Below are positions 1-19,234 of a stretch of 31,699 bases of DNA, in pieces (the first letter of the stretch is position 1; the number at the start of each line of letters is the position of its first letter). Source of the stretch: an uncultured Planctomycetales bacterium. GTDB lineage: Bacteria > Planctomycetota > UBA1135. A model generated the notes under the pieces. That model saw nothing but the letters and a program-made list of their open reading frames with translations, did not search any database and was not told where the DNA came from. The stretch spans positions 1 through 31,699 of the forward strand of contig CAZCXL010000001.1 in NCBI GenBank assembly GCA_964502625.1, given 5' to 3'. A program made the translations under genes and the position numbers.

Positions 1-116
1 CCGTGATGCGTGAAACTCACCTCCGCGCCGGCAGCGGCGAGAGCGCGCACCACAGCGCGGCCGATTACGCCACTGCCACCTGTCACCAAGGCCGAACGCA
101 GCGCGAGAGGATTCAT
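1..116 (-). CDS. SDR/Rossmann-fold oxidoreductase, N-terminal fragment (runs off the left edge)
   Basis: Not in the ORF track. Translation from ATG at 116: MNPLALRSALVTGGSGVIGRAVVRALAAAGAEVSFTHH, with a TGxxGxxG dinucleotide-binding motif. The ATG overlaps the bcrD stop (ATGA, 113-116). Confidence 0.8.
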   Translation of the reverse strand, partial: MNPLALRSALVTGGSGVIGRAVVRALAAAGAEVSFTHH

Positions 117-934
117 CTTGCGAGACCGGCCGGCGCGCGACACAAGAGGCGATGCCGTCCCAGCAGCGCCGCGCCGTAGGCGCCAGCATATTCGGCGTCT
201 GGATGTAGCATCACACTGACGCCAAGTTTGCTCTCCAGCGCGTGCACCAAGGCGCGATTCTTGGAAACTCCGCCGGTCAGTCCGAGGGGCTCCTCCACTC
301 CAACTTGACGCACCAATGAGGCCAGCCGATCGGCGATGGAGGCATGGGTTCCCTGCAGAATGTTGGGAATGGATTCGCCGTTAGTCACGTGGTTGATCAC
401 TTCGGACTCTGCTAGGACCGCGCAGATCGAGGAGATCTCGCACGGATGTGCGGCTTGCAGCGCAAGAGTGCTGACGTCTTCCAGCTCGATTTCCAACGCC
501 CGCGCAACGCGCTCGACGAATCGCCCCGCGCCGGAGGCGCATTTGTCGTTCATGCGAAAGCCCGCCACCCTGCCACTGGGCAGGGTGCGCACGGCGCGCG
601 CATTCTGCGCGCCTACGTCGAGCAGAGTGCGCAAGTGGGGCATCAGAGCCACAGCGCCGCGCGCGTGACAAGTGATCTCCGTGATTTGTATCTGGCGTCC
701 CGCAACTTGATAGCGACCATAGCCCGTGGCCGCTAGATATGCGATGTCTGTGCGCGGCACTTCGGCCAGCTCCAGCGCCGCCTCCGTCACGCGTTCGGCA
801 GCCGCGTCGAGGTCGAAGTGGGTCATGGTTGCAGCGCGTCCGAGGATCTTGATCCCGCCCTGCGCCTCATCGGCTGCAATCACGATCGCCTTGGTCATGC
901 GCGAGCCCACGTCGATTCCTACGACTACGCTCAT
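113..934 (-). CDS. bcrD: Class I benzoyl-CoA reductase ATPase subunit D (BcrD/BadG-like, ASKHA fold)
   Basis: GIDVGSRMTK, TGYGR, DVGAQNARA, cluster Cys in DKCASG and SSICAVLAE, NILQGTH, TGG. The SSICAVLAE...PNIL segment matches the BcrD/BadG pattern as recalled. Position after bcrA. Confidence 0.85.
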   Translation of the reverse strand: MSVVVGIDVGSRMTKAIVIAADEAQGGIKILGRAATMTHFDLDAAAERVTEAALELAEVPRTDIAYLAATGYGRYQVAGRQIQITEITCHARGAVALMPHLRTLLDVGAQNARAVRTLPSGRVAGFRMNDKCASGAGRFVERVARALEIELEDVSTLALQAAHPCEISSICAVLAESEVINHVTNGESIPNILQGTHASIADRLASLVRQVGVEEPLGLTGGVSKNRALVHALESKLGVSVMLHPDAEYAGAYGAALLGRHRLLCRAPAGLAR

Positions 935-1737
935 TGCGTCACCTCCTGCGCGCGCGAGCCTGCTAGCGCGCGCTCCAGCGCAAAGATGGCTGCGCCGAGC
1001 GCCCCCATGAACTGACTGTCTTCGCAGACGTTCACCTTCATGCTGAGGCGTTCTCCGATTGCTTGAACCATGCCTGGATTGCGGGCAACTCCTCCCGTAA
1101 AACTCAACTCTTCCTCCAGCCCGACGCGGCGCAGTAATGACGCGCTACGACCTGCAATGGCGCGGTGCACGCCGGCCAAGATGTCCTCACGCTTGCGCCC
1201 GCGTGACAATTGATTGAGGATCTCGCTCTCGACGAACACCGTGCAGACGTTGGTGATCTTGAGTTGTACCGTGCTGTGCAGAGAAAGCGGCCCGATCTCA
1301 GCGACCTCCATTCCCATCACCTCTGCCGCCGCCGCGAGGAAGCGTCCAGTGCCCGCAGCGCACTTGTCGTTCATGCAGAAGTCCACGACTTCACCCTTCT
1401 CCGTGATGCGAATTGCTTTCGTATCTTGCCCGCCGATGTCAAGAATGGTGCGCGTGCCGGGAAACAGGTGGGCCGCACCTTTCGCATGGCACGAGATTTC
1501 GGTGATCTGCGCGTCGCCCGTGGCAACCCGAAACCGCCCGTAGCCCGTCCCCACGGTGTAGACGACCTCATGCGTTTCGATTCCCGCCTCCGCGCATGCG
1601 TGAGCGAGCACCTCTTCGCCTGCGCGAACGACGTCGGCTCCAGTCATGCGCAATCCGCGCCCGGCAATCTCGCCATTTTGGTCGAGGACGATGGCCTTGG
1701 TTTGAGTGCTTCCGATGTCGATTCCAGCGGCGTACAT
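931..1737 (-). CDS. bcrA: Class I benzoyl-CoA reductase ATPase subunit A, compact 268-aa form
   Basis: GIDIGSTQTK, GTGYGR, EISCHAKGA, DIGGQDTK, MNDKCAAGTGRFL, NVCTVF, KREDILAGVHRAI, FTGGVARN. GGAG SD upstream. Lies between bcrB and bcrD. Confidence 0.8.
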   Translation of the reverse strand: MYAAGIDIGSTQTKAIVLDQNGEIAGRGLRMTGADVVRAGEEVLAHACAEAGIETHEVVYTVGTGYGRFRVATGDAQITEISCHAKGAAHLFPGTRTILDIGGQDTKAIRITEKGEVVDFCMNDKCAAGTGRFLAAAAEVMGMEVAEIGPLSLHSTVQLKITNVCTVFVESEILNQLSRGRKREDILAGVHRAIAGRSASLLRRVGLEEELSFTGGVARNPGMVQAIGERLSMKVNVCEDSQFMGALGAAIFALERALAGSRAQEVTQ

Positions 1738-1753
1738 GACGAACTCCGGTGTT

Positions 1754-3013
1754 TCAGGCTTCCGCCGTCACACGGCGGTGTTCGAGGGACTCGAAAAACG
1801 CGTCAATGCGGTTCTTCATCTGTGCGTGCGCGAAATAGCGCGGGTCGGCGAGATCGCTCTCCACAAAAAGCGTCGGAATGTGGTGGTCGCGGATGAACTG
1901 CTCACGCAGATCGGCCTGTCCCACCGAAAATGACCGGCAGGACTTGACCGAGTGAATCACTAATGCGTCGGCTTCATACTCGGTGACGTACTGCCTCAAC
2001 AATTGCGACCGCATCTCCCAATTGCGGTTGGTGTAGCAGCCGAGCATGTACTCCGCCATGGATTCAAAAGGCCGGTCAGGGTCGTGGCGGAAGCCAAGAT
2101 CCCAGACCCCGCCCACCTTGGAGTAGGTGGACGCCACCGTCACCACCCCCCAGCGCTTGAACATCTCCCAGAAAGCGCGGAAATGCGGCCAGGCCGGCGG
2201 ACCTTCCACCACCACCCGGAAGCGCTCTTCTGGCAGCGCGCCGATGCCGCGCTCCACGCGCTCTTGCACTTCTTGATGCAGCGCTTCGTAGTAGGCCAAG
2301 CATTCGGGAGTTCCGCGGAGGGTGTACATCGGTGCCATGAAGAACACCGCTTCAAAATATGCGTCCACCGGCGATGGGCGCCGTTTCGCGCTGTGCAGAA
2401 CGTTCACCCAGAGGTCTTCGCAACGGGCCGTGCGCGCTATTGCCTCTTGATAGGCGGTTTCGTCGAAGGGTTTTCCGGTCACTCGCTCGCAAACTTTCAC
2501 AAGTTCCCGCAGTTGCGCCTCGACATACTTCACCTCCTCCCGCGTGGGACCAGCAGTGCCGCGCAAATATGGCACATCCACTACCACCATCTCGGCGCCG
2601 TAGAATTCGGCAAGGGCCTCAAACCAGCGCAGATAGGTGGCGCACCCCGCATAGTTGCACACCAACAGGTCCGGCGGCGGCAGCGAGACGCCCTGCGGCA
2701 TGTGGTTGCCCTTCAACATCATGCCGATGTCGTTCTTCACGTAACCGCAGACGTCGCCAGAATAGCCAATGTCCTCGGCGGCAAGAATGTTGGCGCCGGC
2801 GACCTTCTTGATGCCGCACTGCAGTGCGTTAACCTCCGGAAACACGAGGTGCATGCCGCAGGCTTGCAGTAGTTCCCCGATGTTTCCTGAAATGAACAGG
2901 TAGGCGACCTTCTCACCGCGCGCCGGCGCCTGTTCTACGTGCTGGTACCAATCCGCCAGCATGTCCTTTTGGAGCCGCTGGCCGGCGCCCTGATGTAGGA
3001 ATGCCTGAGTCAT
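1754..3013 (-). CDS. bcrB: Class I benzoyl-CoA reductase subunit B (BcrB/BadE; 2-hydroxyacyl-CoA dehydratase family)
   Basis: DVCGYVKNDIGM, AGCATY, RPSPVDAYF, VVEGPP, ASTYSKVGG, GFRHDP, LGCYTN, KSCRSFS, ESDLADPRYF. Three candidate [4Fe-4S] Cys ligands. Confidence 0.9.
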   Translation of the reverse strand: MTQAFLHQGAGQRLQKDMLADWYQHVEQAPARGEKVAYLFISGNIGELLQACGMHLVFPEVNALQCGIKKVAGANILAAEDIGYSGDVCGYVKNDIGMMLKGNHMPQGVSLPPPDLLVCNYAGCATYLRWFEALAEFYGAEMVVVDVPYLRGTAGPTREEVKYVEAQLRELVKVCERVTGKPFDETAYQEAIARTARCEDLWVNVLHSAKRRPSPVDAYFEAVFFMAPMYTLRGTPECLAYYEALHQEVQERVERGIGALPEERFRVVVEGPPAWPHFRAFWEMFKRWGVVTVASTYSKVGGVWDLGFRHDPDRPFESMAEYMLGCYTNRNWEMRSQLLRQYVTEYEADALVIHSVKSCRSFSVGQADLREQFIRDHHIPTLFVESDLADPRYFAHAQMKNRIDAFFESLEHRRVTAEA

Positions 3014-4185
3014 GCCATTGCCTCCTCAGAAAAGAACAAGATGGATTCCGAAAAGGTCTCGGCTTGGGTGCGAACTGAGTCGAAGCTGCCCATTTTCTCC
3101 TCGAATTCAACGGTCACGTATGGGATGCCTTCGCGCTCGAGCGCGCGTTTGTGCAGAACGTAGTCATAGAAGGCGGGCTCGCAGAACTTGGCAATGCAGA
3201 ACATCACGCCTTGCGCTCTGGAGTCGCGCACCCGCTCCAGCAAGCGCAAACTGCGTTCTGAGGGGGTCGCGTGGCGCACCACCGAACCTTCCGCGTGGTC
3301 AAAATATGCATCGACCAAGTCCTGCCAAGGATCGCTGCTGCGTGTGAGCGGTTCCTTGAACCAGCGCAATCCGCGACCGAGGTCTGAATCCACCACAAAG
3401 ATGTGGGCTTGGTCGCACACGCGCAGCAATTCGAGCGCGGGCTGTTCGCAGAAGGAACCCTCCAGCACCACCCGAACGCCGTCTTGCGGCCTGCATTCGC
3501 GCGCCTGCAGCATACTTAGCACCTCACGCAGGACGCGGTTGTGCTCGATGGGATCACGCAATCCGCCGGCGCGCACCAGAATGTACCACTCCTCCAGCGA
3601 CAGGCGCCAGGGTTCGAGTGCGCGCACCGCACTGAGTTCCCGCAGCAACCCCCGCTGCTCCTCGAAGATCTCCAACGCGTGAGCGAGATCTTCGTCGCGC
3701 ACCGTACGCCCCGTGAGTTTCCCGACCTCGCCTGCAAGTCGCTTAAGTTCCGATCGGTAGTGTCTGCGCCCAACCGCACTGATCAAGTTTTGCGGGTAGT
3801 GCAGATAGTCCACAAATTGAGACGGGAAATTGCGCTTCCACACTCCGGAGAGGTTTCGGGCGACGTCGCACAGGGATCCGAACAGCATTCCATCCAGGAA
3901 TTCGAGTCGGTTAGTGAGTCCGAGCTCAAGGGTAGATCGCGAAATCGAGCAGATGAATGATTGAATGCGCGCATCGGCGTGCTCAACTTCGATGCGCTCG
4001 CCGCCGCCCCAGAGCGCGACTGGCAGCGCGCCGGCGGCATAGATCACTTCTTGAGGCACGTACACCGGGAAAAACCCCACGCAAGCGCGGTCAGCCGCAG
4101 CCTCCTTCCAATGCCGCACGGAGTGATACCCCAGATCAAGAAGTTCGGATTTGGCCTGGCTCAGGTGTTGCTCAAGGATGCTCAT
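3010..4185 (-). CDS. bcrC: Class I benzoyl-CoA reductase subunit C (BcrC/BadD)
   Basis: PVYVPQEVIYAAG, QSFICSISRSTLELGL, LCDVARNLSGVWK, GSFCEQP, KFCEPA. 391 aa. Confidence 0.9.
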   Translation of the reverse strand: MSILEQHLSQAKSELLDLGYHSVRHWKEAAADRACVGFFPVYVPQEVIYAAGALPVALWGGGERIEVEHADARIQSFICSISRSTLELGLTNRLEFLDGMLFGSLCDVARNLSGVWKRNFPSQFVDYLHYPQNLISAVGRRHYRSELKRLAGEVGKLTGRTVRDEDLAHALEIFEEQRGLLRELSAVRALEPWRLSLEEWYILVRAGGLRDPIEHNRVLREVLSMLQARECRPQDGVRVVLEGSFCEQPALELLRVCDQAHIFVVDSDLGRGLRWFKEPLTRSSDPWQDLVDAYFDHAEGSVVRHATPSERSLRLLERVRDSRAQGVMFCIAKFCEPAFYDYVLHKRALEREGIPYVTVEFEEKMGSFDSVRTQAETFSESILFFSEEAMA

Positions 4186-4964
4186 CGATGACTCCAGCGT
4201 GGAGCGCGCTTTTCGAGGAATGCAGTAAGCCCTTCGCGCGCGTCCTGCGTCGCCATCAAGGGCCCGAGGTATTGGCGCTCCAACTCCGGCAGCACCTCTT
4301 GCAGGGCTCTGCGCCAGGGTGCGCGCGCGGCGTAGCGCGCTTGCCGCAGCGCAGCACCGGAGAGGGACTGTGCCTGGTCTTTAATCCATTGAGCCACCAT
4401 TTCGTCGAGATGATTTTGGCTGACGATGTGCTCCACCATTCCCAAGCGATGGGCCTCAATCCCGGACAAGACGCGGCCGCTCGTCACCAAGTCGAGTGCC
4501 CGAGCGGCGGACATGCGCAGAGGAAGCAATGCCGCCGCGGCCGGAGGAAACACGCCGAGCTTGATCTCCGGACAACCGAGCGTGGCATCCTCCGCAGCGA
4601 TGATCACGTCGCAGGCGAGCGCAAGCTCTAGTCCCCCGCCCAAGCAACGGCCACGCACGCTGGCGATTACCGGCGGGAGGCGAGGATCCCCGAGCATGCG
4701 CAGCAGCGAGTGAAACTCTGGGAGCATCTGCTCTACCTGACCAGGGAGATGCTCGTCAACACTGGCGCCGTAGCTGAAGTGGGCGCCGCTGCCGCGCAGC
4801 ACGATCGCTCGGAGTTCCAGCTCGGTGGTGAAAATCTCAAGCTGCTCTTTGAGCCGGCCTATTAGAGATCGATCGAGCAGATTAGCCGGAGCCGGACCAA
4901 GCTCCAGCAAGGCCGCTGCGCCACCGCTGATGCGCCTCGTTTCGAGTCGCAGGTCTTGCATCAT
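4182..4964 (-). CDS. dch: Cyclohexa-1,5-diene-1-carbonyl-CoA hydratase (crotonase family)
   Basis: HFSYGASVDEH, CLGGGLELA, PEIKLGVFPPAA, DAREGLTAFLEKR. Start moved from 5030 to the ATG at 4964 (GGAG SD, ATGA overlap with the oah stop), giving 260 aa. Confidence 0.88.
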   Translation of the reverse strand: MMQDLRLETRRISGGAAALLELGPAPANLLDRSLIGRLKEQLEIFTTELELRAIVLRGSGAHFSYGASVDEHLPGQVEQMLPEFHSLLRMLGDPRLPPVIASVRGRCLGGGLELALACDVIIAAEDATLGCPEIKLGVFPPAAAALLPLRMSAARALDLVTSGRVLSGIEAHRLGMVEHIVSQNHLDEMVAQWIKDQAQSLSGAALRQARYAARAPWRRALQEVLPELERQYLGPLMATQDAREGLTAFLEKRAPRWSHR

Positions 4965-6097
4965 GAGTCGTTCTCCGCGGCCTCGCCCGCCCACGGCGCG
5001 AACCGACGCATGAATGCAGGATCTTCCCAACTCCCGCCCTCGGCCAAAGCACGGCGCATTTCGAGGAAGTCGGCCTCCCGTTGCTCACGCGGCGCGCGAT
5101 GAAAAGTTCGGAAGCCGGCCAGCGCTTCGGTCATCATGTTGAGCGCCAGCCACGCCCGATTCCCCTCCCGATTGCGATCCCAGTGCGCAAGCTTATGGCG
5201 CCGCAAATTTTCAAGTGTGTAGGTGGTGCAATCCGGCATGGTGTTGGCTAACTTCCAAGCCAACGCCTCCACCTCCCGGTCCAGCAGGGTGAAATCGGTG
5301 GAGCAGCGCGCAAGCAGCGCCTTGGCTTCATCCTTTGCGGCTCCCGTTTTGAGCGTTCCCCAAAGAGGACGACCCCACGCGTCGTATTCGGTCCGAGTCA
5401 CCACGAGTGGATTGGGAAGATACTCCCCGTCCAACAGCGTCACCGGCGCGAGGCCATTGATCAGCCCATAGCCGAAAGCCTGATGCGCGGTCCACGGCTC
5501 GCAGAGTGTGCAAGACTCAACCGCCCTCGCCCAACCGACGTAAAGCGGAAGAAAATCCGTCGAACCGCCGACCGGAGCCGAACCGTGCTTCGGGCCGGCC
5601 TGGCCAAATCGCGCAGTGTCGGCAGCGATCGAGAAGTCACAGGCCAGGCCAAGCTCCTGACCGCCTCCGATGCGCATGCCGTTGACCCGATTGATCACCG
5701 GCTTGTCGCACTCGAGCAATGCCGATACTAGGTCGTTGAATAGGCGCATATAGCGCCGGTACTCATCGGGACGCCCGCTGTAATGCTCGCTGTATTCGGC
5801 GGTGTTTCCGCCCGTGCAAAAAGCCCTTTCGCCCACTGCTGTGAACACCACTGACGAAACCTCCGGATCGTTCGAGGCCCGACGCAACTCGAGAATCAAG
5901 TCAGCAAGCGTGCGAGTGGTGTAAGAGTTGAGCTGCTGCGGATTGTCGAGCCAGATCCAGCAGTTGAAGATGCCCTCCACCGGACAACCGCGAACATCGA
6001 GCAGAGGGCGCTTTTCGCTGCGCAGCAATGCAGGCAACGACTCCGAAGCGAGGTCGTGATTCAGAAATGACTGTTTGATGGTGGTGAACACGGTCAT
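4961..6097 (-). CDS. oah: 6-oxocyclohex-1-ene-1-carbonyl-CoA hydrolase (ring opening)
   Basis: LDNPQQLNSYTT, FCTGGNTAEY, YMRLFND, RVNGMRIGGGQE, GQAGPKHGSAPVGGSTDFLP, NPLVV insert, AWLALNMMTEA. Start moved from 6523 to the ATG at 6097 (ATGA overlap with the had stop), giving 378 aa. Confidence 0.92.
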   Translation of the reverse strand: MTVFTTIKQSFLNHDLASESLPALLRSEKRPLLDVRGCPVEGIFNCWIWLDNPQQLNSYTTRTLADLILELRRASNDPEVSSVVFTAVGERAFCTGGNTAEYSEHYSGRPDEYRRYMRLFNDLVSALLECDKPVINRVNGMRIGGGQELGLACDFSIAADTARFGQAGPKHGSAPVGGSTDFLPLYVGWARAVESCTLCEPWTAHQAFGYGLINGLAPVTLLDGEYLPNPLVVTRTEYDAWGRPLWGTLKTGAAKDEAKALLARCSTDFTLLDREVEALAWKLANTMPDCTTYTLENLRRHKLAHWDRNREGNRAWLALNMMTEALAGFRTFHRAPREQREADFLEMRRALAEGGSWEDPAFMRRFAPWAGEAAENDS

Positions 6098-7167
6098 GGC
6101 ACGAGGATGGGGCGTTCGGGAATGCGGTGTGCGCGCACTTCTTCCAACACTTCGTTGACGGCATCCATTGGAAATTGCTTCACGAAGGGTTTGACCTGGA
6201 TGGCTCCCGAGCGAATGAGTTCCAGCGCAGGCGCGTAGAGTTGCGGTCGGCAGCCCCAATTGCCGAAGGCGTCTGCATCGAATGCCATCAGATTGCTGAG
6301 GCGCACCGGCACGCGGTCGAGGCAAAAACCCACAATGCCGATGACTCCGGCCGGAGTCAGCAGGGACCAAGCCAGTTCCTGTCCCGCAGGAGAGCCACTC
6401 ATCTCCAGGATTTTGAGTCCCACTTCCGGCAGCCCAGCCTCGCGACAAGCGGATTGCGCAGCAAGCCGCGCAGCCCTGGCGTCCAAGCCGCGGGTGTTCA
6501 CGACCCTTTCCGCGCCGAAGCATTGCGCGCGCTCAAGCCGGGCTTCGTCCACGTCCACGACGACCACCCGCGCTCCGCGCGCGCGCGCGATTTGGATTCC
6601 GAAGGAGCCGATTCCGCCCGCGCCGATCAACACCACTCCGTCACCGTTCGCGACGCCTGCGCGCTCGATGGCTTGGAAGGGAGTGGTGATTGCGTCTGCC
6701 AATACCGCCACGTCCGCAGCGGTCACGCCGGCGGGCAGACGATCAGCCTCCACGAGCCAGCGCGCCGGAGCGATCAAGTGGGAAGCAAACCCTCCATGGA
6801 AGTCATTGCCGGGCATGCTCTGATGCCGACATGCGTTCTCTCTCCCTGCGCAGCAGAGTTCACATGCGCCGCAAGGAAGCACGGCGGGCAACACAACCGT
6901 TTTATTGAGCCACGCTTCCGTGCCTGCTCCAGTCATCACGACCCGACCGGCAACTTCGTGGCCCAGCGCCAATGGCAGCGAGTGCCGCGTGCGCACTCCA
7001 CCGAACAGGAATCCGAGATCGGTGTGGCATACGCCGCAGCCTTCCACGGCAATGACCACTTCCTGAGGACCGGCCCGGAACTCCGAGACACTTGCGCGCT
7101 CCAGGGGCGCGCCCGTTGATGTCATCAGCCATCGGTATCCCGCGCTGTTCAGTCCCACGGGATTCAT
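6094..7167 (-). CDS. had: 6-hydroxycyclohex-1-ene-1-carbonyl-CoA dehydrogenase (Zn-dependent MDR)
   Basis: RWLMT, GCGVCHTD, LPLALGHE, CGACELC...C, MPGNDFHGGFASH, GAGGIG, RLSNLMAFDA, GNWGC. Start placed at ATG 7167 (357 aa). Confidence 0.9.
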   Translation of the reverse strand: MNPVGLNSAGYRWLMTSTGAPLERASVSEFRAGPQEVVIAVEGCGVCHTDLGFLFGGVRTRHSLPLALGHEVAGRVVMTGAGTEAWLNKTVVLPAVLPCGACELCCAGRENACRHQSMPGNDFHGGFASHLIAPARWLVEADRLPAGVTAADVAVLADAITTPFQAIERAGVANGDGVVLIGAGGIGSFGIQIARARGARVVVVDVDEARLERAQCFGAERVVNTRGLDARAARLAAQSACREAGLPEVGLKILEMSGSPAGQELAWSLLTPAGVIGIVGFCLDRVPVRLSNLMAFDADAFGNWGCRPQLYAPALELIRSGAIQVKPFVKQFPMDAVNEVLEEVRAHRIPERPILVP

Positions 7168-7277
7168 CTCAATACAATTCCCAGAGTAGAGCAATTAGTT
7201 TCCCTTTTTTCTTATATTATGGGAATTATATTTCCCTTCCCTCCTCACGCAGCCCCCTCCACAGGGAGGCTGCCAGA
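7168..7277. promoter_or_regulatory. AT-rich divergent promoter region: minus-strand TATAAT (7225-7230) inside a GGGAA-N6-TTCCC inverted repeat (7221-7236), plus-strand TATTAT (7215-7220)
   Basis: The only markedly AT-rich intergenic stretch in the window. Lies between the divergent had and YiiX-like starts. Motifs read directly from sequence. Confidence 0.6.
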
Positions 7278-8024
7278 ATGCTCCACATGGAGTGGCTCGG
7301 GAGACGGCTGGCGGGCTACCTCTCGAAGCCCAGCAAACGCGCGGCACGGCTGGCCACGTGTTCTCCGGAACAACTCGCCGCTGCGCTCCGCAAAGGTGAC
7401 GTGCTCTTGGTGGAAGGCTCCAGCCGCTTCAGCTCGGCGATCAAGTATCTCACGCAATCCACTTGGTCGCATGCTGCGCTCTGCATCCAGGATTGCGCAC
7501 CGGACGCAGACTGCCTCTTGGAGGCGGATCTGATGGCGGGTGTGCAACTCGTGCCCTTGAGCCGGTACGCGACCAGGCACACGCGCATCTGCCGTCCGGT
7601 GGGACTGAGTGCGCAAGAATTGGATGCCGTGGTCGCGCAAGCGAAGGCACGATTGGGTCAGCAATACGACTTGCGCAACGTCTTCGACCTTGCGCGCTGG
7701 CTGATCCAGCGGCCACCCGTGCCGGAGACTTGGAAGCGGCGATTGATCGCCCTAGGCAGTGGGGATCCGACGCGCGCCATCTGCTCATCATTGATTGCGC
7801 AAGCATTCCAGTCGGTGCATTACCCCATCTTGCCTGACTTCTCGCCCGCCGTCGCGGACGGCTCGGCGGAAGCCATGGAGATCTTGAACATCCGCCACCA
7901 CAGCCTGTTTGCGCCGCGCGACTTCGACATCTCTCCCTATTTTGAAGTGGTGAAGCCGAGTCTGGCGCAGGGATTCGACCCGCATCAATTGCACTGGCTG
8001 GACGCAGCGCCTACCGCGCAGTAA
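7278..8024 (+). CDS. YiiX/YebB-like permuted papain-like (NlpC/P60, C92) cysteine amidase
   Basis: GDVLLVEG, YLTQSTWSHAAL (His), LLEAD, QYDLRNVFDL, AICSSLIAQAF (Cys): His before Cys is the permuted order. GGGAGG SD before ATG 7278, so the start was moved from 7092. Confidence 0.8.
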   Translation: MLHMEWLGRRLAGYLSKPSKRAARLATCSPEQLAAALRKGDVLLVEGSSRFSSAIKYLTQSTWSHAALCIQDCAPDADCLLEADLMAGVQLVPLSRYATRHTRICRPVGLSAQELDAVVAQAKARLGQQYDLRNVFDLARWLIQRPPVPETWKRRLIALGSGDPTRAICSSLIAQAFQSVHYPILPDFSPAVADGSAEAMEILNIRHHSLFAPRDFDISPYFEVVKPSLAQGFDPHQLHWLDAAPTAQ

Positions 8025-8030
8025 CCCGGC

Positions 8031-8702
8031 TCACCACGCCGGTGCAGCCGACTCCAGAACCAGCTCCACTCCCCCGATGGGGTGCGGCACGACCAGCCGC
8101 ACGGCATGCAAACCAATGCTCGCATCAGGCAGCGGTTGCTCTGCGCCATATTTGAGATCGCCGGCCAACGGCAAGCCCAGCGCGGAACAGGCCATGCGCA
8201 ATTGATGCGGCCGCCCGGACTCCGGCACGAGCTCCAAGAAAGTGCCGCGCACCGTGGCGCGCTCGATCCGCCAGCGCGTCCGCGCGTGTTTCGCGCGCTC
8301 CCATGCGGCCCGGGCTTCGGACACGGCACGCACGACATTGCGCTCCTCGTCTTTCACCAGCCACTGCTCAACCTCACCGGAGCCTTGCGCTTCGGCGCGC
8401 GGATTGCGCGCCTGACTCCATCCCCGATATTCCTTCAATATTTCGCCCGTGCGCCAAGCTGAGGAAAGCCGCGAGGCCGCCTTGCTGGTGCGCGCAAAGA
8501 GCAACACGCCTCCCACCGGACGATCGAGCCGATGCACCACGCCCAAGTAGACCTCGCCAGGCTTGGAGTACTTTTCCTTCAGATAGGCCTTGGCTGCGTC
8601 GAGCAGCGAGGGATCGCCGCTCGCGTCCGGCACCGTCGGGACTCCCGCCGGCTTATTCACGGCGAGCAGGTGATTGTCCTCGAAGAGAATGGTGAGTCTC
8701 AT
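8031..8702 (-). CDS. RluA-family RNA pseudouridine synthase
   Basis: EDNHLLAVNKPAG, VHRLDRPVGGVLL (catalytic Asp), GRPHQLR, PLAGDLKYG, LHA. Start moved to ATG 8702 (ATGA overlap with the upstream stop). Confidence 0.9.
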   Translation of the reverse strand: MRLTILFEDNHLLAVNKPAGVPTVPDASGDPSLLDAAKAYLKEKYSKPGEVYLGVVHRLDRPVGGVLLFARTSKAASRLSSAWRTGEILKEYRGWSQARNPRAEAQGSGEVEQWLVKDEERNVVRAVSEARAAWERAKHARTRWRIERATVRGTFLELVPESGRPHQLRMACSALGLPLAGDLKYGAEQPLPDASIGLHAVRLVVPHPIGGVELVLESAAPAW

Positions 8703-9619
8703 TCTCGGGTGAAGCGCGCGCAGAAGCCGCAAGGCAAGAGACGCGGCGCGCCGCGAGCGCCGGGACTCTGCTCCTCGGGTAAGGCCAACTCGCCGGTCTC
8801 GATCGTGCCAGGGCCGAAGTCGCGCAGCATGTTGGCAAAGGCTAGTGGCGAATAACCCACCGCATAGGCGGAGAGCACTGTGAAACTTCCGGAAATCGGC
8901 TCGAGCAGCGACGAACACGCCTCGAGTAGCGGGGCCAGACCGTGGTCCAACTCCCATTTCTCCCCTTTGGGGCCGCGTCCGTAGGAAGGAGGATCGGCCA
9001 GAATTCCGTGATAGCGCTGACCGCGGCGCACGTCGCGACGGGCGAAAGCCAGCGCGTCATCGAGCATCCAGCGGATGGCACTGGCATCCAAACCGCTCGC
9101 GCGCGCGTTCTCTGCCGCCCAATCCAAAGAAGTCCGCGACGCATCCACGTGCGTCACTTCCCAACCGCTCTTGGCCGCGAAGACGGAAGCCGCGCCCGTG
9201 TAGCCGAACAGATTCAGCAAGCGAGGCGCCGCGCCTTCCGGGAGGCGGGGCGCCAGCGCGGCCCGGCGCTCCTCCACCCAAGCCCAATTCACTGCCTGTT
9301 CGGGGAAAAGGCCGACGTGTTTGAAGGGTGTGGGACGAATCACGAGACAAGCCGGCTCGGTCCACCCCACCGCCACCTCGACCTCCCATTCCTCCGACAC
9401 TGCGCCGCCGCGGCGCTCCCAGCGGCCGCCACGATCCGACTCACGCATGAAGACGAGTTCCGCGCGCCGCGTCCACTCTTCCGCCGCCAGGCGCGGGCGC
9501 CAGAGCGCCTGCGGGTCGGGACGGCGGAGCGTGAAGCGGCCGAAGCGCTCCAACTTCTCGCCGTTGCCGGAGTCGAGCAACGCGTACGCCGCGAATGGCG
9601 GATGCGGGAAGATCGCCAA
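8699..9619 (-). CDS. Class I SAM-dependent methyltransferase, RlmI/RlmK-like (COG1092-type)
   Basis: ALLDSGNGEKLERFG, FKHVGLFPEQ, LLNLFGYTG, HVDAS, ADPPSYGRGPKGE. Start uncertain; TTG 9619 chosen because a TAGTCT -10 box lies 7 nt upstream. Confidence 0.8.
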   Translation of the reverse strand: MAIFPHPPFAAYALLDSGNGEKLERFGRFTLRRPDPQALWRPRLAAEEWTRRAELVFMRESDRGGRWERRGGAVSEEWEVEVAVGWTEPACLVIRPTPFKHVGLFPEQAVNWAWVEERRAALAPRLPEGAAPRLLNLFGYTGAASVFAAKSGWEVTHVDASRTSLDWAAENARASGLDASAIRWMLDDALAFARRDVRRGQRYHGILADPPSYGRGPKGEKWELDHGLAPLLEACSSLLEPISGSFTVLSAYAVGYSPLAFANMLRDFGPGTIETGELALPEEQSPGARGAPRLLPCGFCARFTRE

Positions 9620-9690
9620 GACGAGGAGACTACGCGCGCCGCTATCGTTTCGCTGGGCTGCTTCCTGGCCCACTCCCTGTTCCCGAGCCG

Positions 9691-10848
9691 ATGACCCTCG
9701 TCTTCGTCGCGAAAGAGTCCCGTCCTGGCGAGCACCGCGTCGCTGCCACACCCGAGACCGTCGCCCGCATGATCAAAGCGGGACTGAAGGTGCAGGTAGC
9801 GGCAGGCGCGGGCGCAGGCGCGTTCATCCCCGATTCCGCGTTTGAGGCCGCCGGCGCCACGCTGGTGGCGCAAACAGCAGGCCTGGGCGCGGCCGATCTC
9901 GTGTTGTGCGTCGCCACGCCTTCACTCCAGGACACGCGCACCTTGCGCAAGGGCGCGATCGTGCTCGCCGTGCTCGAAGGCACGCGCCAACCGGAAGCCG
10001 CGCGCGCACTCGCGGATGCCGGCGCCACCGTCTTCGCGATGGAACTCGTACCCCGCACCACCAAGGCGCAGAAGATGGACGTGCTGTCTTCGCAGGCGAA
10101 CATCGCCGGCTACAAGGCCGTGCTGATTGCCGCAGCGGCGCTGCCGAAATATTTTCCCATGCTGATGACCGCCGCCGGCACCGTGCGTCCCGCGCGCGTG
10201 GTCGTTTTCGGCGTGGGCGTGGCCGGACTGCAGGCGATCGCCACGGCGAAGCGGCTCGGCGCGATCGTGGAGGCCACCGACATCCGTCCCGAAACCAAGG
10301 AGCAGGTCGAATCGCTCGGTGCCAAATTCATCGAGGTCAAACCGGATGAAGGCGCCGCCGAGCCCAGCGTCTACGCCAAAGAGGCGAGCGAGGACTACAA
10401 GCGCCGTCAACGCGAGGCCGTGGCTGCGAGCGTCGCCCAAGCCGACGTCGTGATCACCACCGCGCAAGTGCCGGGCAAGAAGGCGCCGATTCTCGTGCCG
10501 GAGGAAATGCTGAAGGCCATGCGCCCGGGATCGGTGATCGTGGATCTTGCCGCGGAGCAAGGCGGCAACTGCCCGCTGTCACGCCCCGGCGAGACGGTGG
10601 TCCATCACGGGATCACCATCATCGGCCCGGTGAATCTGCCCTCCGGAACTTCCGTTCACGCCAGCGAGCTCTACTCGCGCAACGTGTTGGCGGCCGTTGA
10701 ATACCTGGTTCCGGCGAAGGACAACGACGCACGCGCCATCAAGCTCAACCTCGAGGACGAGATCATCGGCGCTGCGGTTGCAATTCACGGTGGCCAGATT
10801 CGCCACGCCCCCACCTCCAATGCCTTCGGCGTTCCCGCTAAGGCCTGA
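9691..10848 (+). CDS. pntA: NAD(P) transhydrogenase subunit alpha part 1 (dI domain, PntAA)
   Basis: KESRPGEHRVAATPETV, MDVLSSQANIAGYKAV, FPMLMTAAGT, GVGVAGLQAIATA, DVVITTA, DLAAEQGGNC. Start moved to ATG 9691. Confidence 0.95.
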   Translation: MTLVFVAKESRPGEHRVAATPETVARMIKAGLKVQVAAGAGAGAFIPDSAFEAAGATLVAQTAGLGAADLVLCVATPSLQDTRTLRKGAIVLAVLEGTRQPEAARALADAGATVFAMELVPRTTKAQKMDVLSSQANIAGYKAVLIAAAALPKYFPMLMTAAGTVRPARVVVFGVGVAGLQAIATAKRLGAIVEATDIRPETKEQVESLGAKFIEVKPDEGAAEPSVYAKEASEDYKRRQREAVAASVAQADVVITTAQVPGKKAPILVPEEMLKAMRPGSVIVDLAAEQGGNCPLSRPGETVVHHGITIIGPVNLPSGTSVHASELYSRNVLAAVEYLVPAKDNDARAIKLNLEDEIIGAAVAIHGGQIRHAPTSNAFGVPAKA

Positions 10849-10850
10849 TC

Positions 10851-11138
10851 ATGCTGATTCTGCTGCTCTTCGTGTTCTTGTTCGCGATCATCGCGGGCTT
10901 CGAAATCATCACCAAGGTGCCGCCCACGCTGCACACGCCGCTGATGTCGGGAGCCAACGCCATTTCCGGCATCACGGTGATCGGCGCGATCCTCTGCGCG
11001 CACCAGGAATATCCGACGGCCGCCAAAATCCTCGGCTTCATCGCGATCGTGCTGGCCATGATCAACGTGGTCGGCGGTTTCCTGGTCACGGATCGCATGC
11101 TGGGCATGTTCAGCAGCAAGAACAAGAAGGGGCGCTGA
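10851..11138 (+). CDS. pntA: NAD(P) transhydrogenase subunit alpha part 2 (membrane, PntAB)
   Basis: VPPTLHTPLMSGANAISG, NVVGGFLVTDRMLGMF. 95 aa, hydrophobic. Confidence 0.95.
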   Translation: MLILLLFVFLFAIIAGFEIITKVPPTLHTPLMSGANAISGITVIGAILCAHQEYPTAAKILGFIAIVLAMINVVGGFLVTDRMLGMFSSKNKKGR

Positions 11139-11141
11139 GCG

Positions 11142-12620
11142 ATGAACCTCGTCGATCCGCTCTACCTGGTCGCTGCGCTGCTGTTCATTTTCGGCATCAA
11201 GCGCCTGTCGAAGGTGAAGACCGCGCGCAGCGGCAACGCGCTCGCTGCGCTCGGCATGCTGATTGCCATCATCGCCGTGGTGGCTTCGCCGGACAGCGGC
11301 GTCCATCTTGACTGGCCGTGGATGATGGGAGGCCTCGTGACGGGCACGGTGCTCGGCGCACTTCTGGCGCGGACCGTGAAAATGACGGGAATGCCCGAAA
11401 TGGTGGCGCTCCTCAACGGGCTCGGCGGCGCTGCGTCTTTGCTGGTTGCGCTCGCCACCTTCTATGGGTCCTATCTTCATGCACCGGAGTTGACCGGCCT
11501 GCTGGAAGCCGGATTTCTCAAAGACACCGCCCCGGCGCGCGTCCCGGGCGGTGATCTCTCCGCCTTGGGCAGTGCGGTGTGGATGGGCGCCATCCTTGCC
11601 TCGGTCTTGATTGGCGGCATCACGCTCACGGGCAGCCTGGTGGCCATGGGCAAGTTGTCGGAGAAGATCTCGGGCGCACCGATCCTGCTGCCGGGACGGC
11701 ACTTCATCGTCGGTCTCCTGTTCCTCGGCGCAATCGCAATCGGCGCGATGTCCGGATGGGAACTCACCGGCAACACCGCAGCCCTCGCGCTCCTGGTCAC
11801 CACGATCATCGCTTGCGTGCTCGGCGTGCTCGCGGTGATTCCGATCGGTGGCGCGGACATGCCGGTGGTGGTCTCGCTGTTGAACTCGTATTCGGGCATT
11901 GCGGCCTCGATGGCGGGATTCGTGATCAACAGCCCGCTGCTGATCGCCGCAGGCGCGCTGGTGGGCGCGAGCGGCCTGATCCTCACCAACTTGATGTGCA
12001 AGGCGATGAACCGTTCGTTGCTGAACGTGTTGGTCGGCGGCTTCGGCGCTACTGCGTCCAGCGCAGGCGGCGGCAAGAGCGAGTACAAGACCGTTAAGTC
12101 CGCCGCCCCCGAAGAAGCGGCGATGATTCTTGCCGACGCCACCAGCGTGATCTTCATTCCGGGCTACGGCATGGCTGTCGCGCAAGCCCAACACGTAGTG
12201 AAAGAGCTCGGCAAAGAGCTCGAGAAACGCGGCGCCACCGTGCGCTACGCAATCCATCCGGTCGCCGGCCGCATGCCCGGACACATGAACGTGCTGCTCG
12301 CCGAGGCCGACGTGCCCTACGAGCAACTCTGGGAGATGGAGCGCATCAACTCGGAGTTCAAGAACACCGACGTCACCGTCATCATCGGCGCCAACGACGT
12401 GGTGAACCCCGCCGCGATTGACGATCCGCAGAGCCCGATCGCCGGAATGCCTATTCTCATGGCCCACGAATCGCGCACCGTGCTCATGGTGAAGCGTTCA
12501 CTCTCTCCGGGTTACGCCGGCATCAAGAATCCGCTCTTCGAACGCGACAACACGCTGATGTGCTTCGGTGACGGCAAGGCCTTCCTCGACGACGTGCTGA
12601 AGGAACTCAAGTCGGCATGA
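11142..12620 (+). CDS. pntB: NAD(P) transhydrogenase subunit beta
   Basis: MTGMPEMVALLNGLGG, IGGADMPVVVSLLNSYSG, MNRS, PGYGMAVAQAQH, HPVAGRMPGHMNVLLAE, GANDVVNP, GYAG. Confidence 0.97.
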   Translation: MNLVDPLYLVAALLFIFGIKRLSKVKTARSGNALAALGMLIAIIAVVASPDSGVHLDWPWMMGGLVTGTVLGALLARTVKMTGMPEMVALLNGLGGAASLLVALATFYGSYLHAPELTGLLEAGFLKDTAPARVPGGDLSALGSAVWMGAILASVLIGGITLTGSLVAMGKLSEKISGAPILLPGRHFIVGLLFLGAIAIGAMSGWELTGNTAALALLVTTIIACVLGVLAVIPIGGADMPVVVSLLNSYSGIAASMAGFVINSPLLIAAGALVGASGLILTNLMCKAMNRSLLNVLVGGFGATASSAGGGKSEYKTVKSAAPEEAAMILADATSVIFIPGYGMAVAQAQHVVKELGKELEKRGATVRYAIHPVAGRMPGHMNVLLAEADVPYEQLWEMERINSEFKNTDVTVIIGANDVVNPAAIDDPQSPIAGMPILMAHESRTVLMVKRSLSPGYAGIKNPLFERDNTLMCFGDGKAFLDDVLKELKSA

Positions 12621-13348
12621 TCGGGAGCCTGCGCGCCGGGCTGCGGCTCGCGTGTGGGGGCCTTTGGCTGATCTTGATCACGCCGGTCGTCCTGCTGTCC
12701 GCTCTGCTCTCGATCGGCAGCCGCGGCCGGCTCGCGCGCAACGGCGCGCGCGTGCACTGGGTCTGGTCTCGCGTGCTGGGCTGGATCTTCGGGATCCGCA
12801 TGCGCGTGGACGGTCCGCGCCCGCCGCGCGGCGCCTTCCTCGCGTCGAACCATCTCACGCACTTCGACATTCCCGTGCTTGCTTCCATTTTCCCGATGCA
12901 GTTCGTGGCCAAGGCCGAGATCGCGAAGTGGCCGCTGTTCGGACAACTCGCCCTCCTCGCCGGCACGATCTACGTGGACCGCGCTGATCGCGGCTCTACG
13001 CCGAAAATCGTGGCCCACATGAGCCGCTACCTCAAGCACAGCGCCAGCGTGGTGCTCTTCCCCGAAGGCACCTGCGGCAATGGCCTCGAGATCTCGCCCT
13101 TCAAAGCTTCCCTATTCGCTCCGCCCGTGGCATTGCAGTTGCCAACCGTACCGGTGGCGATCCGCTACGTGGGCGAGGGCGCAGTCTGGACCGAGGGATC
13201 CATGGCCTCGCACATGGCGCGCATGCTGCGCGGCAGGCGCATCGAGGTGGCGATCCGCTTCGGGGAGCCGATCCCTGCCGCCACGGACCGCAAGGCCCTG
13301 GCCGTGGAAGCGCGTCGCCGCGTCGCGGATCTCTACGCCACGCTGTAG
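12617..13348 (+). CDS. plsC: 1-acyl-sn-glycerol-3-phosphate acyltransferase (LPLAT)
   Basis: NHLTHFD (HX4D), FVAKAE, FPEGT, N-terminal hydrophobic helix. ATGA overlap with the pntB stop. Confidence 0.85.
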   Translation: MIGSLRAGLRLACGGLWLILITPVVLLSALLSIGSRGRLARNGARVHWVWSRVLGWIFGIRMRVDGPRPPRGAFLASNHLTHFDIPVLASIFPMQFVAKAEIAKWPLFGQLALLAGTIYVDRADRGSTPKIVAHMSRYLKHSASVVLFPEGTCGNGLEISPFKASLFAPPVALQLPTVPVAIRYVGEGAVWTEGSMASHMARMLRGRRIEVAIRFGEPIPAATDRKALAVEARRRVADLYATL

Positions 13349-15495: not shown

Positions 15496-17343
15496 CTACA
15501 TTAGGCCGAACCAGAAGGATACTCCCAGAGTCAGCGCGATCCATGTGATGATGGTGATGGGGACGCCGGCGCGCAGAAAGTCGGACGGTTTGTATCCGCC
15601 GGGACCGTAGACCATCAAGTTGACTTGATGTCCCCAGTGCGTGGCGAAAGAGAGCGAGGAACTGAAGGCCACGGTCAGGATGAAGGCGCGCACCAAGTTC
15701 GCCTGATCGAGATGCGGATGCAACTCGGCGAGGCGCTGTCCGGCGCGGATCGCGATGGGTGTCACCAGCACGCCAACCGCATTGTTGGAGACGATGTTGG
15801 TCAGGACGCCGCAGAGCAACGAGAGTCCGCCGAGCACGGCGACTGGTCCCCATGAATCCAATGCACGCACCAGAGCCGCTGCTGCCTGCGAAGCGAGCCC
15901 TGTGTTGGTCATCGCTTGGCCGAGACCAATCGTGCCGATGATGAAAACCAGAATGGGCCAATCCAGAGCACGATAGGCGCGGCGCGCGGTCAGACATCCA
16001 CCCACCACGGCAGCGAAACCGCCTCCAATCGAGATCCACGGCAGCAAGCGCCCGGCGTGCCCGAGCGAGGCGGCCGTGAATCCAGCCATGACGGCCACGG
16101 TGATCGCGAGCGCGATGCGCGCCTTGTTGCGCAGCACCACCCAATTGTGTGCGCCAGTGAGTAGGAAGAATTCGTTGCTGGCGCGAATCCGCGCCCGCGA
16201 GTTTTCGTCGCCGATCACGAGCAGCAAATCGCCGCTGCTCAGCCGGAGCTTGGAGGCGCGCTCGCGAATGTGATGGCCGCCGCGCAACACGGCCAAAGTG
16301 ACCACGCCGAAGTCGCGGAAGATGTGAAGATCTCCGATTTCTCGGCCGAGCATCGAGGAATGCGGCGCGACCGCGAGCTCGAAGAACTGCATGGTCTTGG
16401 AGTCGTAGCTCGTGTCATTGAAGAGTTTCAACCCGAGCGCGGTCTGCAATCCAGCGATCACGTCCACGTTGCCGCGCAGCATTACGACGTCGCCGGCCTC
16501 GATCGTCTCGCTGAAGTACGGCGGCCAATGCATGTCCTCGCCGCGCACGAAGAACAGCAGTTCCGCGCGCGAGCCTTCGAAGGCGTCACAGAATTTTCTG
16601 CCGAGCAACGGCGAAGTGGGGCCGATCACGAGCTCCGTGACGTATTCCCGCGCCTCGTCGCTGCTGATCATGGAACTCAGCGAATGTCGCACCGGAAACA
16701 GACGGCGCGCGAATATCGCCATCAGCACCGTGCCGACGACCAGCAGCGGAAATCCGATCGGCGCCATCTCGAACATGCCGATGGCGTCGTAACCCTCGCT
16801 CTCAGCCACACCGCTGACGAGCAGGTTGGTGCTGGTACCCACCAGAGTGCACATGCCTCCAAAGAGGGTTGCGTAGACCAGCGGCATCAGCAGCCGCGAT
16901 GCCGCCAAGTGCGAACGACGCGCAAGATCCAGCACCACCGGCACGAAAATCAGCACCACGGCCGTGTTCGCCAGAAACGCAGAGATGATGCCAGCCACCA
17001 GGCCGATCACCAGCACGATCCTGCGCTCTCGGCCGCCAGTGGCTCCGGTGACCGCGCGCGCGATGAACTCGACCGCTCCGGTGCGCGAGAGGGCTTCTCC
17101 CAGCACGTAGAGGCCGGCCACCGTCATCACCGCGCTGTTGCCGATGTTCTCGAGCGCTTGCCGCGCGCCGAGCAGCATGGTGGCGGGCTCGAAACTCGGA
17201 TCGAAGAAGCGCAGCACCTCGCCGCCAGCCACGAGGGCGCCGAGGATTCCCAGACCGACGGCGTCCAGAGAGGCCTTCTCTGTGAACAGAAAAAATAGGG
17301 TGAGCGCGGTGACCGCCAACACCAGGATCGCCGCGGGACTCAT
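15496..17343 (-). CDS. SLC13/DASS-family permease with TrkA-C (RCK_C) domains, paralog 1 (615 aa)
   Basis: SAFLANTA, GGMCTLVGTSTNLL, central hydrophilic region with SPLLGR and GDVVML/GDLLLV repeats, TNIVSNNA, NLMVYGPGGY. Confidence 0.88.
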   Translation of the reverse strand: MSPAAILVLAVTALTLFFLFTEKASLDAVGLGILGALVAGGEVLRFFDPSFEPATMLLGARQALENIGNSAVMTVAGLYVLGEALSRTGAVEFIARAVTGATGGRERRIVLVIGLVAGIISAFLANTAVVLIFVPVVLDLARRSHLAASRLLMPLVYATLFGGMCTLVGTSTNLLVSGVAESEGYDAIGMFEMAPIGFPLLVVGTVLMAIFARRLFPVRHSLSSMISSDEAREYVTELVIGPTSPLLGRKFCDAFEGSRAELLFFVRGEDMHWPPYFSETIEAGDVVMLRGNVDVIAGLQTALGLKLFNDTSYDSKTMQFFELAVAPHSSMLGREIGDLHIFRDFGVVTLAVLRGGHHIRERASKLRLSSGDLLLVIGDENSRARIRASNEFFLLTGAHNWVVLRNKARIALAITVAVMAGFTAASLGHAGRLLPWISIGGGFAAVVGGCLTARRAYRALDWPILVFIIGTIGLGQAMTNTGLASQAAAALVRALDSWGPVAVLGGLSLLCGVLTNIVSNNAVGVLVTPIAIRAGQRLAELHPHLDQANLVRAFILTVAFSSSLSFATHWGHQVNLMVYGPGGYKPSDFLRAGVPITIITWIALTLGVSFWFGLM

Positions 17344-17369
17344 GGTCCGCTCATGCTAGCGGAGACGGC

Positions 17370-19217: not shown

Positions 19218-19234
19218 GCGGTTATGGTAGTCGA
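19218..19234. promoter_or_regulatory. Putative bidirectional promoter: overlapping -10 boxes TATGGT (+, 19223-19228) and TACCAT (-, 19224-19229)
   Basis: Each box is exactly 6 nt from the start codon on its own strand (ATG 19235, GTG 19217). Confidence 0.6.

Follow-up and report, generated by a model that had tools for sequence, protein, structure and literature searches.

Work on class I benzoyl-CoA reductases has, to our knowledge, been confined almost entirely to denitrifying and phototrophic Proteobacteria. The present study concerns a putative operon for such an enzyme at the start of a 31,699-nt stretch of DNA (hereafter the window; positions 1 to 31,699 of contig CAZCXL010000001.1, assembly GCA_964502625.1) from an uncultured Planctomycetales bacterium. 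With a probability of about 0.72, this operon would serve the ATP-dependent dearomatisation of benzoyl-CoA, or of a close analogue, together with ring opening in a groundwater member of the Planctomycetota.

The cluster of Thauera aromatica bears the annotation had-oah-dch-bcrCBAD-fdx (PMC6449761). The window operon has the same order of these seven genes and the same four reductase subunits, while the place of fdx is taken by a gene for a FabG-like short-chain dehydrogenase/reductase (SDR). A previous sequence-only reading of this DNA had regarded the leading position of the ring-cleavage genes as a departure from Thauera, but the Thauera order it gave was reversed. The MBR-type reductase MbdONQP (PDB 9g87, 9gai) is the closest solved relative of all four window subunits. 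The BZD-type reductase BzdNOPQ of Aromatoleum sp. CIB (PDB 8s02; PMC11971306), from which the roles of the cluster cysteines and the catalytic glutamate of BzdO are taken here, belongs with the window enzyme to the benzoyl-CoA reductase/2-hydroxyacyl-CoA dehydratase (BCR/HAD) radical enzyme family. Thauera-type operons of other planctomycetes (such as G203, MBK8207046.1) share with the window both the phylum and the eight-gene order, including the terminal SDR.

Organisation of the operon

Seven genes on the minus strand, had-oah-dch-bcrC-bcrB-bcrA-bcrD, and the start of an SDR gene fill window positions 1-7167, as read from the open reading frame listing and the gene junctions. Both Had and Oah of the lower pathway were matched at the equivalog level: had (6094-7167, ATG at 7167) scored 417.8 bits against TIGR03201 (cut-off 338.65), and oah (4961-6097) scored 465.9 bits against TIGR03200, barely over its cut-off of 464.45. 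The best NCBIfam model for dch (4182-4964), whose flanking by oah and bcrC is conserved, was TIGR03189 with 208.5 bits, under the cut-off of 292.5. This cut-off looks narrow, because the Dch of the Thauera-type operon in G203 also falls under it with just 211.8 bits. The reductase itself would be encoded by bcrC (3010-4185; gamma subunit, the half of the catalytic dimer that transfers electrons; TIGR02263 329.8 bits, cut-off 421.15), bcrB (1754-3013; beta subunit, the substrate-binding catalytic half; TIGR02260 417.2 bits, cut-off 486.55), bcrA (931-1737; a short, 268-aa ATPase/electron-activating subunit; TIGR02259 215 bits, cut-off 578) and bcrD (113-934; the second ATPase subunit; TIGR02261 184.4 bits, cut-off 312.85). 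The first two belong to PF06050 and the last two to PF01869, with E-values of 1e-57 to 1e-67, which is the four-subunit make-up of a class I benzoyl-CoA reductase in contiguous and coupled genes. A Pfam scan of the whole operon returned one ADH, two crotonases, two HGD-D and two BcrAD_BadFG domains. These best matches in Pfam and NCBIfam bear out the identity first proposed for the operon, that of a dearomatisation and ring-opening unit.

Start and stop codons overlap as ATGA at 6094 (had stop and oah start), 4961, 4182, 3010, 931 and 113, and only bcrB and bcrA are separated, by 16 bases (AACACCGGAGTTCGTC) that contain a GGAG upstream of bcrA. The ORF and junction read-out agreed with the earlier description of seven genes plus an SDR on one strand, six overlaps and one gap. 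The SDR gene (1-116, minus strand) begins with an ATG at 116 that overlaps the bcrD stop and opens a Rossmann-type N-terminus (MNPLALRSALVTGGSGVIGR...) before it leaves the contig start. The C-terminal part of about 200 aa is encoded at C27:14319-14932 (minus strand), at the end of another contig of the same assembly, which argues that C27 abuts the start of the window contig (C1), with a gap of about 50 nt within the SDR gene. This C-terminal part shares 63% identity with the SDR located after bcrD in L003. The operon terminates with this SDR, the 3' end of which overlaps a convergent 576-aa gene on C27, and an SDR stands directly after bcrD in all relatives examined. The sequence-only reading had suggested a search for the same gene order in other genomes, and the eight-gene order was indeed found in at least nine other Planctomycetota species (it is kept in L002-L010), which argues for a conserved unit rather than a chance arrangement.

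Reductase subunits and their phylogenetic position

Thauera-type NCBIfam models were the best matches for all four window reductase subunits, yet none of the four passed the cut-offs of TIGR02259-02263 that, taken together, define the Thauera (BCR) subclass. In the planctomycete control G203, BcrB (733.6 bits), BcrC (503.9) and BcrD (351.3) did pass and BcrA just about reached its cut-off (575.2 against 578), as Oah (580.6) and Had (405.4) also passed in the lower pathway; unlike the window protein, G203-type BcrB is 73% identical to a protein labelled 'Pseudomonadota'. With that 'Pseudomonadota'-labelled homologue and PDB chains as references, the window BcrB showed an identity of 45% with Thauera-type representatives, compared with 36% for MbdO, 26% for BzdO and 25.5% for HadB.

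The window BcrB keeps the cluster-ligand cysteines and the PE-motif glutamate of the Thauera type. Its Cys89, Cys124 and Cys359 align with Cys95, Cys128 and Cys380 of BzdO, the three-cysteine [4Fe-4S]-water site, and its Glu60 lies within a PE motif common to Thauera-type proteins, MbdO and HadB. Glu60 is probably the counterpart of BzdO Glu65, the N-terminal 75 residues of BzdO falling outside the alignment. The position of BzdO His131 is occupied by Tyr127 in the window protein and by Phe in the Thauera and MBR types. BcrC has its closest solved relative in MbdN (249.7 bits), with which it shares four cysteines, and is without the extra cysteines of the [8Fe-9S] double cubane of BzdN, the second cysteine of CxxC and that of DDQC both being missing. 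The bzd-type models TIGR03190 and TIGR03191, whose cut-offs lie at about 450 bits, gave scores of about 118, which sets the window enzyme apart from the BZD type.

A further difference from the Thauera type lies in BcrA. Thauera-type alpha subunits are long (about 430-450 aa, with an N-terminal insertion; 441-450 aa in the operons examined), and Thauera-type planctomycete operons retain this insertion, whereas the window BcrA of 268 aa does not have it. The best stretch of BcrA matched TIGR02259 only at model positions 221-432, and its low score against that model is due to the missing insertion. Its closest solved relative is MbdQ, which is of nearly the same length (269 aa; 335.5 bits). Cys126 and Cys165 of BcrA align with Cys127 and Cys166 of HgdC (1hux), and Cys132 and Cys171 of BcrD likewise align with the two cluster cysteines of the activator family; we take positions 127 and 166 of 1hux to be the ligands of the bridging [4Fe-4S] cluster of the activator.

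In the maximum-likelihood tree of BcrB, Thauera-type proteins formed a fully supported clade, and the sequences of the window's GTDB family formed a single clade (100/100) inside a shallow, poorly resolved radiation that includes sequences from other uncultured phyla. MbdO did not group with the window protein; its partner, on a long and fully supported branch (100/100), was a third planctomycete paralogue (G020) outside the window's clade. The bootstrap of this tree had not converged and the deep branching order is unsure. Taken with the residue and length comparisons, the tree places the window reductase in what appears to be a clade distinct from those of the Thauera (BCR), MBR and BZD types, in which the catalytic subunits would be Thauera-like and the ATPase subunits short and similar to those of the MBR type.

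The third paralogue belongs to a further BCR/HAD-type four-gene set in C-B-A-D order, seen in several genomes of the window's family, namely G020 (C67:21001-41000, positions 8680-12760 of locus L099), G009, G012, G015 and G019. Its BcrB is 37-39% identical to that of the window and groups with MbdO (100/100); at L099, the sole locus of this kind that was fetched, dch, had and oah were not found nearby. A BcrB from an Eisenbacteria metagenome-assembled genome (MAG; L044, 10001-11251) carries an in-frame stop directly after the third cluster cysteine (KSCR*FS), which may reflect a sequencing error or a pseudogene. A tblastn search with BcrB of the PLSDB plasmids, made to obtain Thauera and Azoarcus references, returned only dehydratase-family genes of 23-29% identity.

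Proposed pathway and host metabolism

From gene content and conserved residues we infer the substrate, the activity, the role of the SDR and the electron donor in the following scheme. A dimer of BcrA and BcrD would hydrolyse ATP, its bridging [4Fe-4S] cluster lowering the potential of the donor's electron, and BcrC would relay the electron to BcrB, where the three-cysteine [4Fe-4S]-water site would reduce benzoyl-CoA, or a very close analogue, to cyclohexa-1,5-diene-1-carbonyl-CoA. Dch would then hydrate the diene, Had would oxidise the 6-hydroxy product and Oah would cleave the ring, giving 3-hydroxypimeloyl-CoA. The FabG-like SDR, whose gene is translationally coupled to the others, probably oxidises this product to 3-oxopimeloyl-CoA, which would enter beta-oxidation and be processed further by a glutaryl-CoA-dehydrogenase-like enzyme encoded elsewhere in the genome.

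An acyl-CoA dehydrogenase (ACAD) gene adjoins the operon in L003 and L095 and lies on contig C198 in the window genome. By our reading, the C-terminus of this ACAD looks typical of glutaryl-CoA dehydrogenases, and the ends of the upstream genes suggest that it adjoins the operon in L004, L005, L008 and L010 as well. Co-occurrence of ACAD with the operon was considered and ruled out: 33 of the 41 family genomes have this ACAD irrespective of the operon, so that it is part of core metabolism.

A cluster of the same reductase clade in an Ignavibacteriaceae MAG (L019, 1-21233) has in addition a FadB-like fusion, an ACAD, a 2-oxoacid:ferredoxin oxidoreductase (IOR/OFOR pair) and a fused 2Fe-2S/MoCo/FAD molybdenum hydroxylase of the 4-hydroxybenzoyl-CoA reductase type. 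HMGL-like, aconitase-C-like, SDR, DUF2889 and hemerythrin genes were also noted there. Enzymes of anaerobic benzoyl-CoA degradation were reported to be expressed by an Ignavibacteriaceae MAG in a benzene-degrading, nitrate-reducing culture (PMC8099898).

The window genome encodes aa3- and cbb3-type oxidases (the CcoNO fusion scoring 1159 bits) and the alpha subunit of a 2-oxoacid:acceptor oxidoreductase of the two-subunit type (655.3 bits, cut-off 482.75). A facultative lifestyle is usual for class I enzymes, and these host genes fit it. A 452-aa protein of the heme-copper oxidase superfamily on contig C61 (3984-5342; PF00115, 228.9 bits) matched no NCBIfam model at E<=1e-20 and may be a nitric-oxide-reductase-like enzyme.

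Presence and absence of the operon within the genus

All three congeneric genomes (G001, G002 and G003) are without BcrB. In each of them a contig runs straight from the right flank of the window, beginning at the C92-peptidase and rluA genes (in G002 at rluA), into the C27 flank (<=14326), with a nucleotide identity of 70-80%; in G001 the stop of the 576-aa gene lies 7 nt from the C92 start codon. Since the outer flanks are adjacent in all three congeners, the operon block of about 7.9 kb is a clean presence/absence cassette in the genus. It extends from the SDR stop to about position 7277, including the 45%-GC control region upstream of had. Gain in the window species and loss in the congeners are both compatible with this comparison. 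A target-site duplication was sought at the cassette ends; the 6-nt CTCACG near both junctions was the only candidate and was treated as chance. The empty site of G002 (C234; locus L091, 2180-2995) holds about 800 bp with small ORFs and no C92-peptidase gene, which indicates that this intergenic spot varies within the genus.

Both junctions of the cassette lie inside assembled contigs, the left one in C27 and the right one in C1, and a Logan contig from a single run (X2), which may be the very sample behind the MAG, spans 7116-7447 with zero mismatches. A chimera at about 7200-8030, raised by the sequence-only reading as a possible flaw, is contradicted by these contigs and by the adjacent flanks of the congeners.

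Distribution and previous records

The window genome (84% complete, 0.65% contamination, 475 contigs) belongs, independently of the operon, to a GTDB family of the Planctomycetota, as had been suspected from its core genes, and the window DNA occurs in groundwater and aquifer metagenomes. Within its family, the operon was found in about 9 of 22 genera, with different housekeeping neighbours each time. A BcrB scan of GTDB species genomes gave ten Planctomycetota MAGs (L001-L010) at 75-80% identity, followed at 56-66% by Eisenbacteria, Acidobacteriota, Bacteroidota/Ignavibacteria, Latescibacterota, Gemmatimonadota, Tectomicrobia and Thermoplasmatota archaea.

Of 401 Planctomycetota genomes sampled evenly, 92 carried a BcrB homologue (E<=1e-60). 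About 70 of these homologues were 45-51% identical to the window protein, and the four loci fetched from that group (45-49% identical) all read had-oah-dch-bcrC-bcrB-(long)bcrA-bcrD-SDR. Within its phylum the host is accordingly not atypical, contrary to what had been supposed. Nor is the lineage new to the pathway: NCBI and JGI already apply the label 'benzoyl-CoA reductase subunit B [Planctomycetota bacterium]' to Thauera-type proteins and to close relatives of the window protein, and Planctomycetes were among the MAGs with bcr/bam plus oah, dch and had in the survey of Dong et al. (2020; PMC7673041). The order in this host is canonical, common in the phylum and already annotated; what is new is the uncharacterised reductase clade, the cassette behaviour and the missing ligase.

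The contigs on which P0229 is encoded (L100/L101) carry a Thauera-type had-oah-dch-bcrCBAD operon, the BcrB of which is labelled 'Pseudomonadota bacterium'. Its neighbours, sulfatase, FHA and proteasome-type genes, look unlike those of Proteobacteria, and the taxonomic label may be wrong.

Substrate entry, electron supply and alternative explanations

Several observations weigh against benzoyl-CoA dearomatisation by this operon. BcrB, BcrC, BcrA, BcrD and Dch all score under their NCBI equivalog cut-offs, although the expected families are the best matches; the identity of BcrB to Thauera-type proteins (45%), MbdO (36%) and BzdO (26%) is low; and no assayed member of the window's reductase clade was found. 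The RNA evidence hints at transcription of bcrB in situ, but it consists of a single short contig, which might stem from carried-over DNA; this contig, 171 nt long and from an aquifer metatranscriptome, is identical to positions 2354-2524 within bcrB. No benzoate-CoA ligase passed the TIGR02262 cut-off (375.25) in the window genome, where the best match (216.6 bits) is by our reading probably an acetyl-CoA synthetase, and none passed it in the eight other operon-bearing genomes of the family, three of them 90-92% complete. The remaining AMP-forming ligase candidates either had their best scores with models of long-chain fatty-acid-CoA ligases (FadD-like) or resembled acetoacetyl-CoA synthetases in sequence; the FadD-like enzyme is encoded at C20:7991-9829. 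Moreover, fdx is not in the operon, and motif scans for 2[4Fe-4S] ferredoxins found no small ferredoxin gene in the 84%-complete assembly. The operon had been called complete, which overstates the case, as neither a benzoate-CoA ligase nor a ferredoxin gene to accompany a regenerating oxidoreductase was found in that assembly. Most genomes with planctomycete Thauera-type operons do, unlike the window genome, encode the ligase; it was present in 10 of the 14 BCR-bearing Planctomycetota outside the window's family. G031 and G038, which belong to another family of the same taxonomic order and share the window's reductase clade, have it.

Much of this would suit a class I aryl-CoA reductase whose substrate is not benzoyl-CoA formed from free benzoate but an aryl-CoA that is substituted or derived in another way (methyl-, hydroxy- or halo-benzoyl-CoA, or the benzoyl-CoA that arises when aromatic amino acids are broken down) and is supplied by a CoA transferase or a non-canonical ligase. 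The sub-threshold scores of the reductase subunits, an ATPase module closest to the promiscuous MBR type (MbdQ, 335.5 bits), the Tyr at the BzdO His131 position, a ligase tally of 0/9 in operon-bearing family genomes against 10/14 elsewhere in the phylum and a ligase repertoire that is only Acs-, FadD- and acetoacetyl-CoA-synthetase-like all point that way. However, Had and Oah score at the equivalog level for the pathway of the unsubstituted compound, the layout equals that of the Thauera benzoyl-CoA operon, and the same-clade genomes G031 and G038 do encode benzoate-CoA ligase, so that this explanation is considered rather unlikely. A 2-hydroxyacyl-CoA dehydratase made up of the B and C subunits, working with its activator in amino acid fermentation, is very improbable, even though several close homologues bear the label '2-hydroxyacyl-CoA dehydratase' at NCBI and PF06050 is common to both: BcrB is just 25.5% identical to HadB, the HadB and HadC equivalog models give 184 bits (cut-off 750) and 200 bits (cut-off 700) while the BcrB and BcrC models give 417 and 330, two ATPase subunits are encoded instead of a single homodimeric activator, translational coupling links the genes to Dch, Had and Oah, and the host has respiratory oxidases.

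The low coverage of the 475-contig assembly, an operon GC of 61.9% against 64.8% for the genome and the three congeners that do not have the operon might raise the suspicion of a mis-binned or chimeric contig, or of a decaying remnant. Such an origin has only a slight chance of being correct, given junctions inside C27 and C1 with flanks adjacent in G001, G002 and G003, an X2 contig that covers 7116-7447 exactly, eight reading frames intact and coupled, and nearest operons that belong to the same GTDB family. A biosynthetic role, the supply of pimeloyl-CoA-type precursors instead of catabolism, had been put forward in the sequence-only reading and would agree with the failure to find a substrate-activating ligase. 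It found no support here and seems extremely improbable: an ATP-consuming ring reductase needs the input of an aromatic CoA ester that is itself costly, related clusters adjoin beta-oxidation and acyl-CoA dehydrogenase genes, and members of the genus can do without the operon. The preferred explanation is the dearomatisation of benzoyl-CoA, or of a closely analogous compound, with ring opening.

Control region and neighbouring genes

Between had and a divergent C92-peptidase gene (likely ATG at 7278) lies the AT-rich control region of 110 nt (7168-7277; 45% GC). It contains a palindrome, GGGAATTATATTTCCC, at 7221-7236 with a TATA core at its centre, and a longer 18-nt imperfect inverted repeat (7171-7188 with 7215-7232). 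Near-palindromes of the form GGGAAATAT..TTCC occur within 220 nt upstream of had in L003, L004, L005, L008 and L010, and it is plausible that a shared regulator acts on this had-upstream palindrome as a candidate operator. A strict scan of 7050-7400 for sigma-70 promoters and terminators gave no match.

Elsewhere in the window, the genes are of a housekeeping kind and include a C92 peptidase, RluA, an RNA methyltransferase, PntAB, an acyltransferase, two CitMHS/TrkA-C transporters, an ABC/FecCD system, polysaccharide genes and PhoU-PstBA. The two CitMHS/TrkA-C transporters form a tandem at 15496-19760 on the minus strand, and the second ORF, listed at 796 aa, probably has a later start.

Implications

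About a quarter of the sampled Planctomycetota genomes carry operons of this kind, and the window's clade extends across many uncultured phyla of groundwater and sediments; both points matter for the attribution of anaerobic aromatic turnover in metagenomes. Marker-gene primers or equivalog hidden Markov models tuned to Thauera and Azoarcus would miss this clade, because its scores fall under the cut-offs. The absence of the ligase across one whole family is a concrete gap that can be tested. It may tentatively be proposed, as a possibility that we regard as doubtful, that the clade represents a fourth subclass of class I aryl-CoA reductases, with Thauera-like catalytic and short MBR-like ATPase subunits, occurring widely among uncultured Planctomycetota, Acidobacteriota, Bacteroidota/Ignavibacteria, Eisenbacteria, Gemmatimonadota and Thermoplasmatota, and moving in this family as an eight-gene cassette with its own palindromic operator and without a canonical benzoate-CoA ligase or an operon ferredoxin. 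If true, this would imply a different route of substrate entry, a different substrate or a different electron donor.

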